From the NCBI GenBank assembly GCA_965112155.1, contig OZ218105.1: a stretch of 64,000 nucleotides of DNA, one strand, 5' to 3'. Made by a program: the position numbers and the translations under genes. The notes under the pieces were generated by a model. That model saw only the letters and a list, made by a program, of their open reading frames with translations. It was not told where the DNA came from and ran no database searches. Shown piece after piece: positions 1 to 33,931 of the stretch. Position 1 is the stretch's first letter. Each line of letters opens with the position of its first letter. The stretch is from Podarcis liolepis (Eukaryota).

Positions 1-2329
1 CCCTTCCTCTCCTGTGATCAAAACCAATTCTTATTTTTCCCTGAATGTACTGTCAGATCTCTGTATTCTGTCAAAAGAACAAGGGGATGATTTTATGTGA
101 GTGGTGTTTTTATACTTGAGCTATATTTGGAATATGTGGAGTTAGGAATCTAAATAAATCTTAATGATACATGAGCATGTTCACTGTTAAGTTTTGAGGT
201 TCAGAAGCTCGCCATGACAGCCCCCATAACCACACACCCAAAGAGAGTAAAAAAAAATATGCAGGCATCTGTGCTGATCTATTATATGCCCATATGTATG
301 TACACACACATACCAGCCAGCAGCTGTACATGGCATAAAACCCAACTTAGTTGAATCAGTTGACAGTCACAGAATGGTAAGCTATTCTCGTTTTCTGACT
401 TCCCCTGTGCTCCTATAGCACAATCAATCATGACTTCCCCTATGCTACTATACCACAAACAATAGTAGAACTTGAAAGCCTAATTATATCACCTCATTCA
501 CTTGCCAGAATGTGGAGAATCTGTCAATTACTCCTATTCTATGGAGAACGGGATTCTGGAACTGCACCCCCCCCCCCATGTTTCCCCTCCTCTGCATTAC
601 TGAATAAAGGGCATACTTCTGATTGAAAAAAAGATAAAATAGCAAGCAACTGCAGGAAGGCAGGAATGGGTTAGACTTTGAGACAAGAGGCTAAACAATT
701 TCAAAGAGGAGGCAGCAGAAACTTCCTTAAGAGATGCTCTGGCTTCTGTCAGAACATGTGCTGATTTGTTTTTGGTTTTTTTAATAGAGGTTTTATTTGT
801 GTTGGTCCATTGTTCCCCGAGGCCATTTCAGCTTCATTAATATAAATCTTATGGTGGTGGTGTGGAGGGGTTGGGAGCTTTAGAAAGGTACATGTAAGAG
901 AAATCATGTTCATCATGCCAGCATTGTTGTTCATTTATATGCACAACTAGCTGAACTAATTCAATGTATTTTTCTGTAAGAATTATTATCACCAGCAAAC
1001 GGGGGACAAGGAGGAAAGAGAGCTTGCCTATCTGATTCCTGCGGAATAGCCAGCACTCCTTGTTAACATGTTGTAAAATATTTGCTCTTGTAGCAAGAAG
1101 TGACAGTATATCAGCAGCTCTGAAATTTCCCCGAGACTGCCTGCACTTCCCTAATAAGCAACTGGAAACAAAACAAAACAAAAAAGTGCCCAGGTGTTCA
1201 ACATCTCTTGGAAAATTGACTGCAAACTGGTTTGCTCTTGCCCTCTCTCCAAGCAAAGCAGAGAGAAAAGCAAAAAGCGTACAAATATAACCTCATTAAA
1301 TAAGACAGCAAGCCTAAGTGGCATACAAGGCTATTAAGCAAACTAGATTGGCCCATAATAATAAGGAACATATTTCACGTGTGTGGTGTGGTGCTTGGGC
1401 ATTTAACAAGTAATAGGACTACCAGGTTGGCAGGTAGTTAGGCTCCTCCATCAGTATATCATTGTCAATGGCTGAGCTGTCTCAAAAGCAGCACTTATCT
1501 CATACACTTTATTGCTTGATAGCTGGCTGATTGCTTTTACAAAGCAATAAATTGATGGACTGATTCAGCAGTGACATTAGGTTATGTTCATTTTTTGTGA
1601 TTGATGCTCTGAATTAGAAAACTCTTACTGTCTCTTCACCGTTTTCCAAATATGAAATTCGAAAGAGGCAAGATGAGCATCACAAATGAAACGACACAGT
1701 GAATGCCAAGCCAGTTAAATTTCTGCATTTAAATAGCTAACTTGTTTGCTCTTTAATTAAGTGCTCATAATTTATTTGTTAATGCTGCTCATTCAAATGA
1801 AAATGATTTAAAGAAAGAGCTTCTTATATTGCTGTAGCTGAAGAGGTGCACACAAAGGCGGTTCATCTCTCAATTAAAATACACTGAACAATATTATCAA
1901 ATTTATTTATTTAAAATACTTTATATGCCATTATTTCATCACTTCTAAACAGTTTACATATAAACTATTAAAACAAATCCATGGAAATAGTACAAAAACA
2001 AGCAACATTATGAGATATAATATTTAAATTATATGTATCATCATGATACGTATTAAACACGCAAATTCAGATATACTGACATCAATTTCATTTTTACAAT
2101 TATTAATAAAAAAGAAAAATGATACAAGTAAAAGCAGAATAATAAAAAGAGAAATAGGTAAGAAAAAGTGGGGGGGGGAACATTCTCCCATTATTAAGGT
2201 CAATATTATCATACTATTCATATGATGAAATCTAAAGGATAATATTCGTTAAAACAGAATATAATTGTGATGCATCTTGAACTTTAATGTTTCAATACAT
2301 AATGAATAAACTCACATTTTCCTATGAAA

Positions 2330-3200
2330 ATATTACATAATGATCTCCTTTCTTGAGCTCTTATAAGTTTAACCAGTTGATAAAAACATTTTATAAATCA
2401 GTAGCATGGACTCTGTCTCCATCTCATTTCCTGTAACATTCTTGTCATAAACCTACTAAAAGTACAGCTAATGGATATTGTATTAAGGAGAGACACTGTT
2501 GGTTCCCTGTCAGCTAAATGCCAACATATTCCTTCTGAGCATAAGAAGTATGTACTAGATGATATTCGCCTAAAGGATGACTTGTCATTGAAGGCCTATA
2601 TATATAGGCCTTAAGGCTGATGAAGAAATACAGTAAACAAACTTGAAATTTCTCCCTTGAGCATTCCTGAAACCCAAGGCAATTGAAACAGGATGGTCAG
2701 AAATTTATGTGGTGAATATGTGCATGTATCAGCTAGCACTAGAATAATGGTTATGGCAGGAAACAGGAAAGAGGAGAGGATTGATAGCAGGTTTGGAAGG
2801 AGAAAGGAGGAGTTGGTCATAACACTCCTGAATTTTTTGCAACAGATATCAGACTGTTAGATCCAACTGAGAAAAGCCCAATGCAATTCATACAGGTGTG
2901 CAAAAGCAGTTTTATACCTTCTCTTGGGTTGAATTTGTGTCCAGATGGAGAGAATATAGAGCAGCATACGCAGTGATCCGAATGATACCAAATGCTTGAA
3001 GTCCACCTGGAAGGAGTTACCAGTTAAGCACTGTATCATACAGGGATGGTTCTGGAATTCAGAGCTGCAGTGTTTCAGAAAGAAGCACCCTCAGAAATAT
3101 ACCACTGCAAGCAATACCCTCCCAACCAAATGCGACACATGGATATTATTATATGGATGTTGGTACATAGGCGCCTAAATGATACTCATTTGTAAAGGAA
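2330..3200 (-). mobile_element. Possible very old LINE (RTE-X-like) ORF2 3' relic
   Basis: Minus-strand peptides weakly echo RT C-terminal motifs: 'GNSFQVDFKHL' ~ 'IEQVxxFKYLG', 'VLLSET' ~ 'VLLSRT', 'YPLAVLLVG' ~ 'LPSAVLEG'. Heavily degraded. Confidence 0.3.
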
Positions 3201-6200
3201 AAAAAATATATGCTCAGGTCAGGTAGTTCAAATTCAAGTGATTTGCGAGTCCAAACTTGCCACACAGCAGATTCTGGTGGTTTTGATAAAGGAAGGGTGC
3301 CACCGCTAGTTAGACCAATGTATCCCTGTTCCACATCTTTTCCCCCCAAGCCCTTGCATAAGAATTATCTTTTATTTATGTTTATCCAAGAATTCCCTGA
3401 TCTTCAGCTTTCGGCTCCCTTAACTATGACTTATTCCCACGCACTCTTGCCCACAATGCGGAGGCAACATGTTTTTATTTTTCTGTACGATCCCTGCCTG
3501 AGAGTGACAGAACATCATCATGTGCCATCACTCCCAGGGGAATTTGCTCTGACCTGCATGAAACTGGTTAACTTCTGAGGCTGTTTAGGAAAACAAAGGA
3601 ACAAAAACAAAGGCCACCCAGCATGCATTGGACCACCACATGAAGAGCTATGCAGGACTGTAGGTTCTCAAGTGGACTCATGATCCAGTCTGGATCATGG
3701 TCCACCAGATTCAAATAAGGTGAATCTGTTTTGGCATACAGGTTTGCAGATTACCCCTCCATCTCTAGAGGGAATAGAATTTATCAATATTCCTTATGTA
3801 TAAAATATGCAGGATTTTAGAAAAGGAGGCTAAAATCACGTTGGGTCCACTCTGTAACAGTTTCATTTCTTTTTACAAATAGTAGGGAACTTTTCTAAAG
3901 AGTGATTTTAGCTCCTTAGGGTGTGAACGTCTGATTCTAGTTCCTGAAGCAGAAATTCCTTTGCTCTAATTGCCTAGTCAATAGTTGTGACATATATTTG
4001 GGGTCGAGAAGCTGTTGTTATTCCATAGTGTGTGGAGGTTATGACCTTACTGTGTAGAGTAGCAAAGGCAACACTGTTTAATAAGTTGGACCTATCATGT
4101 CTCACATTTTATTTTCTTAATAGCTTGGTCCATGTGATTAGAAATATTTTAGTAGGAGCTAATTACTTTTACAAAATAGGAGAATTTCACTGGGTCGGGG
4201 GCGGGGGGGCTTTCTTTGAATCTTGTCAAGTTGAGAAAAATACAGAGGAAAAAGACTCTTCATTTCTTCTTTTTTGTTCACTTGATATTTTAGTCCAACG
4301 TTCCAATCAATAACTTAATAGCAACTACTGCAGCCTTTAGGTCCCTAAGTGAGAGTTGGCATTTAACTAATCTAATCAGTGCAGAACATTTAGATCTATG
4401 GAGTAAAAGCTATTACACTTGCTGAAAAACAGGAGATAGACTTGGACCAAAGGGAGCATGTATTATCCAATCAGATGCCTTTTGCAGAGTGTGCATCACT
4501 GTGAATGTGCTGTCTTTGATGTGATGATATTTATTGGTAAATAAATAATGCTTTAATTTATCAGAAATTTAGCCTGTCAAGCGTTTGCTAACAAAATGCA
4601 GCTATGCCTTTGGGGCTACTGTGGAATTGTACAGGATGTTTGTATTCATGTAGATTATTCATGTTTGGCATGTTAGTCATCTCCATACAGCTGAGCAAGG
4701 GCATCATAAGCATCATTTAGATACAGTTAGAGAAAATATAAGAGTAACAGGCTGATCCCAAACACTGATCCCAGTCTGTCTCACTGAACGGGGTGAACAC
4801 TCAGAGGAGTGAACTGTGCCTCATTCCACTGAAGCCAATATTTCCATAATCTTTGATATTTTAAACTTCTGGTTTTGAGGTGCAGCTCTCTATTCTTCTG
4901 AAAAGTTCATAATTTTTCTTCTGCTTTTCCAAAAAAGCAAAACAAGACAAGCAGATAAAAAGTCCCTATTTTTCTACTACATGAATAGGCCTATGAAACT
5001 GGGAGGGCAGTTTAGACACAGCATTAATTCAAATAATCTTAGAGTTGGAGTTCTTATATTTAAGATAATATTGCTACATCTGTAAATATTGTTTAGTGAA
5101 AATAGTCCTCTACAGTCCTCAGCTTTTAAAACTTTATCTGATCAGTACACAATTGCAGAGCACTCTAGATGTAATCATCAGACCCTCAAAACTGAAGTAC
5201 TTGTGCAGTTAATGGTTTGGCAATTGCAGATCTAGAAATAGGTCAGTTCGGATTGAAAACGAAATCATGGAATAAAGGGTGCATTCAGACATAGGAATTA
5301 CTGCTTTTGTTTTCCTGTTATAATTGCTTGAACTTATCTATGTTCCTAATGTTCCTCTTATACTGTTGCATTCTGGAACTGTGGCTTTTTGAGTGATATA
5401 CCCCCACGTTGTATTAAATTCCATTCATTCACCAGTGGATGTGCTGTGTCGCAATAGCAGACATCATTGGACATCCTGCCACTCTTTATGCACAGGGGTG
5501 CTTCTGTTCCCCATGTTTTACCTCTGAAAACAGAGGGAAAGAACTGTATGCTCAAATACTGTCTCAGATTTCATCACGTTATGATCCATGAAAATGGGGA
5601 AATTATAGTGCAAAACAATCTTGTAGTTTTACAGGTTGCAAATGGAATTTTTACCTTTTTTTGGAAGCAATTAACAGATTTCCATAAATGGTTTGCATTG
5701 TGTGAAAAAAATAAAACACAGAAATTATCAGGTAAGAAAACATCAGGAAAGAAGAAGAAAGTTGTCTGGATGCAGCCAAAAGTAAGGTTTCTAGTGCAAG
5801 ACTCAGTCTCCCATGGAAGTTTCAGAACTTATTTAATAGGAATAAGAAATAGAACCTGAAAGGTTCATTGTTTAGGGTTAGGCCTTTCAGCATGATTAAA
5901 AGGTAGACATTTCCTCTGGTGTTTTGCACAGCAGAATATCTGAGCCTTTCGTAATTAAATTAGTTATGAAGCCAGCCAGTATTTCATCAGGAGTGACTGA
6001 GATAAACATATTCTATGGGGGGAAACTGGAGAGATCCTTTGGACTATTTCACAGGACATTTTGGAAGCATTCCTAATCTTGAGACTTTGGTGGCAGGGAG
6101 ACTCCAAAAGTCTCATTGGGGTAGGCTGCTGTCATGTAAAGGCAATAAAGCAAGCAAGGATGGATGCAGTAATCTCTGTTCCTGTGCCACTATGCCCGTT

Positions 6201-6961
6201 ACCCTCCATCAGCTGGAGACTACCTGAATGATTTAGAACCCCAATTTTGCAGGGTTCTAGATTATGCGGGGAGCCTGCTCCCTGCTTCAGAAGTCACTAT
6301 CAAGCTCATAGAAAAGAATGTGCATGTTTCTGACCTTTACAGATAAGTATCATGACATAATAAGGCTAAAATCTTTGTAAGGATAATAAATAGTAGTAGC
6401 AGCAGTATTTTCATTTCTATACTACAAACTATAGAAAGTTGCATAAATTGTCAGAGTCATGTTGGTTCCCTCTTGGAGCTTCAACGACCCCAGGAGGCAG
6501 GAATTGTTGCAACTCCCACTGGTGAACATGTGTCCCAAGGCCCATGAGAGTGTGTCATTCTTGTGAGTCAAGAAATTAATGAACTACTTCTGTACTATTA
6601 AATTTAATTTCTGGCCAAGCATTTAAAGGATTACTTTTCATTAGTGTACATAAAGAATACTATCTATCATATATAGATGTGGTAACCCAGTCCTTAACTT
6701 TGGATAACAGCTACAAGGAAGGACATTGCCAGGGTTTGCCATTTCTTGGTTCTGGTTTGGTAAGTTTCTTCCCTCTCCCTGATGCTATCTAGAATGCTAG
6801 CACAACCATGACTATAGTGTTGATATACCTGGAAAATATCTGTGTCTAATTTGGTTCATAATTGGCCTCAGGATGCCAAGCTATTTTTTATTTGGGTGGG
6901 AGGTTTTTCCTTTTTCTGACCCCAAAATGTGGATCAGTATCTTTGGGTGGGCCATCTATGG

Positions 6962-7272
6962 GTCTCTCCTGCTCCAGAGGGTAGGATCTGAACCAATGGA
7001 TTCAAGTTACAAGAAAGAGGATTCTAACTAAACATCAGGAAGAATTGTTTGACAATGGAATGGACTCCCTCAGAAGTGGTGAACTCTCCTTCCTTGGAGG
7101 TTTTTAAGCAGAAGTTGGATGGCCATCTGTCAACATCATCAGCATCATTGCATTATTATTTATACCCCACCCATCTGACTGTGTTTCATGTATGATCTAG
7201 TTGAGATTCTTGCATTGCAGGAAGTTGGACTAAGTGACTCTTGAGGTCCTTTCCAACTCTACCATTTTATGT
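6962..7272 (+). mobile_element. CR1 LINE 3' end, interrupted by an L2-type tail fragment (~7133-7190)
   Basis: CR1 ORF2 end and 3'UTR: 'aatggattcaagttacaagaaagagg...ccttccttggaggtttttaagcag...gttggactaagtgactcttgaggtcctttccaactct'. Confidence 0.85.
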
Positions 7273-7506
7273 TTCTTTGACAAGCCGGTTTCAACAATAC
7301 TTGTGACCTTTTTCATGCATCCTAGTTCTGAGACCATTTACTTTAGTCCTTATTGCTGAATAGTTGTTCAAATACCTGAATCCCAAGAGTGGCCTTCATT
7401 GCAAGCAACGTCTTTTGCAATAGCTTGCAAAGTCAAGAGCAAAAGGAGGCACTTTGAATAAGCATCTGTTAGGATGAAAACTTCCATCGACAGCAGGAAT
7501 TCCTGG

Positions 7507-7622
7507 TCAAAATAAAAAAAAATTTCTTCCAGTAGCACCTTAAAGACCAACTAAGTTAGTTCTTGGTATGAGCTTTCGTGTGCATGCACACTTCTTCAGA
7601 TACCACTTCTTCAGATACCCAG
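7507..7622 (-). mobile_element. Short Penelope-like element terminus
   Basis: Minus strand reads 'gtatctgaagaagtgtgcatgcacacgaaagctcataccaagaactaacttagttggtctttaaggtgctactgg', a typical PLE terminal repeat. Flanked by ATTCCTGG at 7499-7506 and 7623-7630. Confidence 0.8.
7565..7604 (-). ncRNA. Minimal type I hammerhead ribozyme motif
   Basis: GGUAU-CUGAAGA-A-GUGUG(CAUG)CACAC-GAAA-GC-UC-AUACC. Stem I 5 bp, intact core boxes, stem II 5 bp, palindromic AGCU in place of stem III. Confidence 0.8.
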
Positions 7623-8473
7623 ATTCCTGGGGCAGTCTCAGCTACTCCTTCAGAGGGAAACTAGCATGGAACATTTACTCAGGTGCTGATTTCCATGTTA
7701 TGTTCAGCCTGGCTATAGATAGAATGTCATCCCTTCAAAAAGTAATCCCTTTTGCTTCTGAATCTTTTCCCCACCCCAAGCCATAAGTATTCTGGGCTTG
7801 TGGACATAATTTGTCAAGACAACCTTTCTTTCGACAGAGAGTTGATAACAGTCCAAACTTCCAGCTGATTGTGTAAGACAGCAAACTCCTTAAAACAGAC
7901 ATCATTCTTCCTTTTGTTGTTTGGCTCTTTAGATTCCCCACTATCCTTCACTTTAAGTGCACATCCACTGTTGGATAGGATGACAAGACAAGGTAGCATG
8001 TCATTTATTTAAACTATAGCCTTTTATCACACCGAAAGCAAGGCTCTGGACCTTGTCGGATTTTGTATTCAATAGAAACACTCAGGTCATTGCTCCTAGA
8101 TTTAGCTGATAGTTACAAGTATTTTACCAATCTCAAGTTCCTTTGTTATTCTTCACAGCTTCCCCCACCCCCAGGAAAAAAAGAGAAAACATTTATATAC
8201 TAGGATTACATTTAAGAGCAACAGAGATACAATCATCTACTACTAATTATACTTTGTCAGAAATGGTTAAATATTATTTCTATTATTCCTTATGGGTTTG
8301 GTCACTTCTAGATTACTACCAGATTGATAATCATACTCCATGTACAGTGTTTTAGCAAATGCCTAATTCAGTCAAGAAAGATTAAATGAATTTTGAAATA
8401 TCACCTGGCAGCAAACAGGGATCCATGAGTGATTGAGCCCTTTCATTTGCATTATTATTCACATAGTAACTTC

Positions 8474-8990
8474 TCAAACCCTTGGTGAATTAGGGACTCT
8501 CCTTGCATTTGAAGACAGGCTTAGGCAGACTGAGCAAATGAGGCCAGTAGTAAGTCCAATGGTCAATAAGGTGGTTTCTACATGTGCTGTAGAGGAAAGT
8601 GGGCAGATGGTAGCCCATCTTGGAGAAGGACAACTCTGATTATACACCTCCACTGCCTTGTGGGCTATCTTAAGGAGAAGAGAAGATCAAGGCGTAAACC
8701 TTACACAAATCTGGAGTGGAGTCCCTAAGACAGTTGGATAGCACTTTGTACGCCTCATTCTAGCAACTCCTGCAGCCAAGCTGGTGCCAAACATATTGCT
8801 CTGCTTTCCTTTGGACCACATCAAAGAGGCCAAGGGGGGGGGGGTCTAGTTGCATGGACAGCTCAGGATCGCCATACAAACTGTCCAGGCTTGTGCCCTG
8901 ATGAAGTTACTTTGGTGCTGCTAATGCAGCAGTTTAACTTCACACACAGAGGTGTACTACACTGTCTTTTGAGGCAGATGGATGCCAACA
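8474..8990 (+). mobile_element. Non-autonomous RTE-derived retroposon (RTE 5'UTR joined to RTE 3' end)
   Basis: Exact 9-bp TSD AGTAACTTC (8465-8473 / 8991-8999). RTE 5'UTR motif 'gcccatcttggagaaggacaactctgat...cctccactgccttg'. RTE-type end 'ctgtcttttgaggcagatggatgccaaca'. Confidence 0.75.
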
Positions 8991-33689: not shown

Positions 33690-33931
33690 CAGTGGTACCT
33701 CTGGTTACGTACTTAATTAGTTCTGGAGGTCCATTCTTAACCTGAAACTGTTCTTAACCTGAAGCACCACTTTAGCTAATGGGACCTCCTGCTGCCGCTG
33801 TGCCGCCGCCGCGCGATTTCTGTTCTCATCCTGAAGCAAAGTTCTTAACTCGAGGTACTATTTCTGGGTTAGCGGAGTCTGTAACCTGAAGCGTATGTAA
33901 CCTGAAGCGTATGTAACCTGAGGTACTACTG
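33690..33931 (+). mobile_element. Tigger/pogo-like MITE
   Basis: TIR CAGTGGTACCTC / GAGGTACTACTG. TA on the left. Near-identical to 47202-47427. Confidence 0.93.

Follow-up and report, generated by a model that had tools for sequence, protein, structure and literature searches.

A young 116-bp insertion with a minimal hammerhead motif is a copy of the front end of a Penelope-like element

In the published passages considered here, EN+ Penelope-like elements (PLEs) are described as units composed of a pLTR, an inverted 5′-truncated copy and a tail of 30–40 bp, one of whose pLTRs has been observed to contain TATA and initiator-like motifs (PMC8557442, PMC3846280), and promoters have been reported in pLTRs (PMC2377424, PMC3846280). 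The one-sidedness of the tail is known qualitatively (PMC8557442, PMC3846280), and a C-x4-C-x2-C linker in the encoded protein marks the Neptune or Nematis types (PMC8557442). As regards the hammerhead ribozymes of these elements, the minimal motifs are reported to need dimers for cleavage (PMC4209133), and PLE hammerheads display none to low activity without protein, with weak cleavage as dimers or when protein is present (PMC4209133, PMC11167929). The origin of the inverted repeats and of the tail, as well as the role of the hammerhead, are stated as unanswered in the corresponding passages (PMC8557442, PMC11167929).

We have analysed a 64-kb stretch of DNA (hereafter the window), whose minus strand forms a minimal type I hammerhead at 7564–7605, inside a solo insertion with an 8-bp TSD. 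The original prediction had proposed an insertion of about 115 bp; the insertion is real and its measured length is 116 bp (7507–7622), as given by contigs from 4/4 DNA runs (four runs, four organism codes, three studies) which join 7498 to 7623, thereby skipping 124 bases with 8 letters shared. The recurrence of this joint in all four runs indicates that the insert is 116 bp long, has an 8-bp TSD and is young; the contigs prove that the empty allele is present and do not show that the filled one is absent. The flanking 8-mer ATTCCTGG is found exactly at both 7499–7506 (left TSD copy, plus strand) and 7623–7630 (right copy, plus strand), and the 3′ end of the left copy is likely to have been the primer for reverse transcription. 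This TSD is shorter than the 12–14 bp usual in the family, and the junction could alternatively be read as a TSD of 13 bp from which 2 bp were lost. The insertion is a young, real copy of the front end of a PLE, with 7506–7603 being 96% identical to a natural full-length copy of the element: on the minus strand, 7507–7622 comprises a 5′ leader/pLTR stub of a Neptune-type element followed by a junction segment (7604–7622) that is absent from the full-length element. Relative to the predicted cut site, to which all signed positions below refer, the window copy spans −34 to about +62, and the leader downstream of the hammerhead (7507–7563, minus strand) ends at about +62, just past a U-tract and just before the element's first ATG, which places it in the short class of 3′ ends. 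No other piece of the element was found in the 64-kb window. Two further repeats were also noted: the end of a different high-copy repeat at 7200–7280, about 220 bp from the insertion and with very high contig depth, and a 16-bp tandem repeat of 2.6 copies at 33880–33921, a like unit of which flanks a copy in locus L022 and which probably belongs to another repeat family.

The minus-strand reading of 7565–7618 put forward in the original prediction, with both core boxes and stems I and II, was checked on the sequence and is as stated. The element encodes the 5′ strand of stem I as GUAU (7600–7603), and the stem is formed by pairing of 7605–7600 with 7569–7564, with 6 bp when the inner copy of a 15-nt duplication is used and 5 bp with the outer one. 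It is followed by the core box CUGAAGA (7599–7593), an extra A at 7592 (the two together occupying 7592–7599) and stem II (7578–7591), which consists of 5 bp and a CAUG loop, has a predicted pairing of 0.95 within the insert and, as had been proposed, is a perfect palindrome, 14 nt in length. The GAAA box (7577–7574), the minimal palindromic stem III AGCU (7574–7571) and C17 make up 7570–7577, and the 3′ strand of stem I (7564–7569) completes the motif; sequence reading, descriptor and folding place the predicted cleavage between 7570 and 7569. At 7570 a common variant of other copies turns C17 into U, with the UH rule still satisfied. The window copy therefore has the CUGANGA and GAAA boxes with a UH cleavage site, and displays further features of a minimal type I PLE hammerhead: A7592 between positions 9 and 10.1, G7591–C7578 as G10.1–C11.1, the palindromic AGCU, and a location in the pLTR of a PLE.

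This site, in two registers, is the single match of a custom hammerhead descriptor in the window, and the same descriptor gave 0.04 matches per window on 100 block shuffles and 0 under strict settings. A covariance-model search had been suggested as a check, and an Rfam scan of 6500–8700 returned no hammerhead family among 5 matches at E≤10; this does not refute the motif, since the definition of minimal PLE hammerheads relied on a relaxed descriptor. Variants of the hammerhead are scattered single changes, and with one motif sequence across 155 matches the family is too uniform for stem covariation to be read. A degenerate pattern for another hammerhead family gave 0 matches.

The affiliation to PLEs, with a minimal type I motif devoid of a stable stem III, is borne out by homology among genomic copies and by the full-length element. 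An intact frame of 925 aa comprises RVT_1 (E 1.4e-11) along with a GIY-YIG domain at its C terminus (E 2.2e-5), with a C-x4-C-x2-C linker motif at residue 786; a PDB sequence search with this protein gave 0 matches. Judging from these sequence features, the parent appears to be a young EN+ PLE with a Neptune-type linker, that is, an element of a known kind, Neptune being presumed over Nematis on the basis of host range. The family has the traits of EN+ PLEs, namely a single ORF with RT and GIY-YIG, tandem or inverted pLTRs, an optional tail and a TSD. The terminal repeat of the full-length copy houses the hammerhead, and 62 nt separate the cut from the first ATG, which opens the RT plus GIY-YIG frame; longer copies extend upstream into the end of the GIY-YIG frame. 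At the tandem locus L137:5340–8120 (minus strand; G000:C1, about 101.117–101.127 Mb) the 925-aa frame is uninterrupted, with a piece of inverted pLTR beside it, an array that gives the impression of recent activity in the family. Two single-cell RNA runs from the same study contain 7 and 12 reads that connect the element's +155 back to −36/−37 (L137:8170 to 7979), a joint that probably reflects an expressed tandem genomic copy; back-splicing was considered for it and rejected, as no GT donor is found there.

The most informative feature of the family is the upstream boundary of its copies. Genome-wide exact matches, counted as arms and not as insertions and including some point mutations, fall from 13,170 arms with −34 to −13 to 5,915 for −40 to −19 and 4,061 for −68 to −47, 28 nt further upstream. 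Divergence occurs right after −34 in 2,985 arms, −35 in 848, −36 in 2,819 and −37 in 590, altogether 7,242/13,170 (55%), and position −34, one of the two family-wide peaks, corresponds to 7603 in the window copy. This leaves 5,928 arms, close to the 5,915 that contain −40 to −19, so that almost no arms stop at −38 to −40. No comparable drop occurs at the cut, with 14,291 matches for a 25-mer spanning it and 16,605 for the segment downstream (+8 to +31). In agreement, a sample of 135 arms taken from one contig over its first 4.9 Mb, selected with a downstream anchor (most loci through a downstream pattern, some through a hammerhead pattern), includes 40 ends at −34 to −37, 4 at −1 to +3 and 0 at position 0. 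Loose ends at this edge also recur in each of the four DNA runs and each of the four RNA runs. As the copies span the cut intact, with no pile-up of 5′ ends there and an edge upstream of the hammerhead, the templates of the family copies were uncleaved, as is described in vitro for Poseidon in the passages cited (PMC11167929).

What sets this edge is a separate matter, and we consider it likely that −34 to −37 marks the transcription start of the element's RNA. In the full element, TATATAG lies at −67 and the A of an initiator-like TCAGT at −37; their separation of 30 nt is the canonical TATA-to-initiator spacing. Both the TATA at −67 and the initiator A at −37 are kept in 2/3 older diverged copies, where the TATA match is better, and the older copy L102 has no TATA at −67. 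The base following −34 ends is G in 37/58, as cap copying would give, and that following −36 ends is T in 35/49, which cap copying does not explain, both sets including loci selected on those very ends. Among solos with a clear TSD, a call not obtained for 24/46 solos, a clean untemplated G is seen in only 2–3, and some of the Gs could come from fold-back. The initiator predicts −37, yet the peaks fall at −36 and −34. In four RNA runs, which come from a related organism, are not 5′-capturing and have 84–90% of reads from other copies, no RNA starts pile up at −34 to −37.

The same edge coincides with a short hairpin and with a plausible 3′ splice site, and both offer other accounts of it. A structural stop or fold-back point on read-through RNA, be it the inverted repeat −41 to −36/−30 to −25 or the complementarity of stem I in the cDNA, is in our judgement unlikely. 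A short hairpin is indeed predicted at these positions, fold-back-like pieces and joins centred on palindromes are seen at many junctions, and self-priming has been proposed for rotifer PLEs in the passages cited (PMC3846280). An RNA hairpin, however, is expected to stall RT at its 3′ base, around −25, and not at −34/−36, whereas snap-back requires arms reaching −40/−41 and almost none stop at −38 to −40. Likewise, fold-back on stem I of at least 3 nt is found in 5/37 of the ends followed by G, with none of at least 5 nt, which is near chance, and solos abutting their own TSD show the same −34 to −37 edge. Splicing would make the edge an acceptor, the copies deriving from the spliced product: the sequence, read directly, fits one (YAG at −38 to −36, a pyrimidine tract and a branch-like motif upstream), and in Drosophila virilis Penelope an intron is described as ending at helix I (PMC4209133, PMC2377424). 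We regard this as highly improbable, as a spliced template is expected to bring along a shared first exon, whereas 141 ends at −34 to −37 have no common sequence and match the element's upstream sequence over 8 nt at most; moreover, −35, the position where the exon would start, is a minor class (848), and no forward-skipping joint appears among the joints listed from the RNA runs.

A second regularity concerns the downstream ends, which form two clusters at about +45 to +72 and +88 to +98. Head-to-head pairs account for about half of the insertions, a first set comprising 46 of them against 47 solos. In 42/45 classified pairs of this set and 37/37 of a second one, for which 5′ ends were the sole selection criterion (each set including one unclassified pair), one arm is long (+88 to +98) and the other short (+45 to +72), totalling 79/82. 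Solos divide into 21 long and 24 short in the first set and 17 long and 20 short in the second. When only one arm is at the edge, it is the short one in 32/45, and the TSDs of pairs are mostly of 12–14 bp. Some head-to-head junctions, at L088, L143/L058 and others, contain a filler of 20–300 nt that comes either from unrelated DNA or from regions of the element lying upstream. The near-strict long/short pairing is in keeping with priming from both ends, at the two internal starts observed in vitro and perhaps on a single RNA.

Taken together, the explanation that we consider probable is that the 116-bp insertion is a young, hammerhead-bearing 5′ leader of a PLE, made by RT priming inside an uncut RNA and running off at the RNA 5′ end. 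In such a mechanism the TATA at −67 and the initiator at −37 would define the transcription start and thereby the 5′ edge of the copies; the endonuclease would make a staggered cut, and either DNA end could act as a primer, at the short site for one and at the long site for the other, so that two primed ends would yield head-to-head pairs and a single retained cDNA a solo stub such as the window copy. Cleavage by the hammerhead would require a partner and, probably, the help of protein.

The junction of the window copy (7604–7622, minus strand) may be accommodated within this explanation. The 15-nt duplication 7589–7603/7604–7618 reported in the original prediction is exact, and the junction can be read as the trace of a cDNA which extended to −34, acquired a C, copied −20 to −34 anew (7604–7618), acquired a second C, copied a few more bases anew and became joined to the target through a 2-nt overlap; in minus-strand terms this would correspond to a re-copy of −34 to −20, an extra G and a further partial re-copy of 3–5 nt into the TSD. 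Both the duplication and the extra G would thus stem from a cDNA end re-copied before joining, and either the element's RT or host end-joining could have done it; like re-copies are common at the junctions of the family. The duplication does provide a second 5′ strand of stem I and a second CUGAAGA, as had been noted, and lengthens stem I from 4 to 6 bp. A catalytic benefit from this is not supported, since only the 5′ half is copied, with no second stem III half and a single GAAA-GC-UC, which precludes an intramolecular dimer; from its sequence, the duplication appears to be a junction re-copy of the cDNA end and not a tandem dimer. The thousands of short copies with fixed ends could instead suggest a self-propagating non-autonomous family with its own master copy, akin to SINEs or to the PLE-derived retrozymes described in the cited passages of a preprint (bioRxiv 10.64898/2026.07.22.740005). 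This is extremely improbable, considering that the junctions all differ, the stub has no TATA box, the short copies grade continuously in length into long 5′-truncated copies, and no tandem array of hammerhead units occurs in the 64-kb window.

A more elaborate version, to which we give limited credence, is asymmetric twin priming from a single RNA that is capped and uncut: both DNA ends would be used by a dimer, starting at about +60 (the U-tract) and about +95, both cDNAs would run to the transcription start, and the hammerhead would act as a cap-proximal switch. If true, this single scheme would account for the inverted pLTRs, the one-sided tail and the leader stubs, which number in the thousands. 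Only RNAs starting at −34 to −37 would then allow the hammerhead to fold, and it would be masked in read-through RNA, where the initiator sequence would pair with the catalytic core. Indeed, the predicted pairing of stem I is 0.39–0.54 for RNA starts at −34 to −37 and at most 0.13 at −38 to −43, and the sequence upstream of the hammerhead, together with the core (L137 about 8175–8090, minus strand), is predicted to pair with the leader at about +20 to +45, thus masking stem I in read-through RNA. With a 3′ end at +150, starts beyond −46 bring the predicted pairing back to 0.32, making this the fragile part of the scheme; a switch by upstream masking of stem I and core is possible on these folding models, and sensitive to the 3′ end chosen.

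A distinct question is whether the window copy acts as a working host ribozyme, cutting minus-strand transcripts after pairing in trans with the RNA of other copies. The core is intact, the junction extends stem I from 4 to 6 bp, RNA bearing the motif is present in both orientations in a related organism, and weak cleavage as dimers or with protein is on record for PLE hammerheads in the passages already cited (PMC4209133, PMC11167929). We nevertheless deem this role very unlikely, and the cutting of host transcripts advanced in the original prediction finds no support: the site is empty in 4/4 runs, and no gene has been identified nearby, Pfam giving 0 matches on 128 of the window's 336 frames of at least 55 aa (bases 1–22.7 kb), which is a weak test. 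Folding predictions point in the same direction, as the pairing of stem I is 0.57 in the insert alone and 0.04 when the flanks are included, and at −22.5 kcal/mol the double hammerhead is predicted to fall short in stability of both two monomers (−25.0) and the best co-folded dimer (−42.0), energies which leave out tertiary contacts. The folding z-score is −2.24 for the 42-nt motif alone versus −0.42 for the whole insert, and in the full-length copy the best predicted dimer of the motif pairs via the stem II palindrome. No pile-up of read ends at the cut was seen in the four RNA runs of the related organism, whose libraries are not 5′-capturing and have 84–90% of reads from other genomic copies. 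The hammerhead of the window copy is thus most likely a passenger with neither promoter nor host role, and the copy is probably inert at this locus.

By itself, this single copy matters little, as minimal hammerheads in dispersed Penelope fragments have already been described. The family matters more, with over 13,000 near-identical arms recording the reaction at base resolution, and the intact cut site, the four-base 5′ edge and the long/short pairing provide direct predictions for an existing in vitro system. Neither the edge nor the pairing rule was seen in quantified form in the open-access literature searched, some relevant studies lying outside its reach.

Considering the passages available from each source, the closest relatives of the motif are the minimal type I hammerheads of metazoan PLE pLTRs (PMC4209133), with which it shares a short helix I, the extra nucleotide between 9 and 10.1, G10.1–C11.1 and the palindromic 15.2–16.2. 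As here, those are mostly single dispersed copies, with reptiles among the carriers; in contrast, helix II has 5 bp and a 4-nt loop here versus 7–8 bp in the Schistosoma motifs, and the present family is young and nearly uniform whereas the motifs in PMC4209133 are highly variable. With the described EN+ PLE units (PMC8557442, PMC3846280) the family has in common the C-terminal GIY-YIG, partial tandems, head-to-head inverted copies and a tail often at one end only. It differs in its near-obligate one-tail rule (79/82) and in a 5′ edge that can be narrowed to four bases at the initiator, neither being quantified in those passages. Short non-coding, PLE-related type I units are shared with the non-LTR retrozymes (bioRxiv 10.64898/2026.07.22.740005), which are however tandem arrays with a complete hammerhead per unit, while the window copy consists of one complete hammerhead with a TSD. 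The nearest mechanistic parallel is Poseidon of Anolis carolinensis (PAc), for which the passages in PMC11167929 describe two internal RT starts about one tail-length apart, cutting and extension of both strands, and uncleaved RNA as template; in vitro, no reads of PAc end at the hammerhead cut, as is the case for the copies of the present family. PAc belongs to another clade, and its ORF starts at stem II (PMC11167929), whereas here the ATG lies 62 nt past the cut and the whole hammerhead is contained in the 5′ leader.
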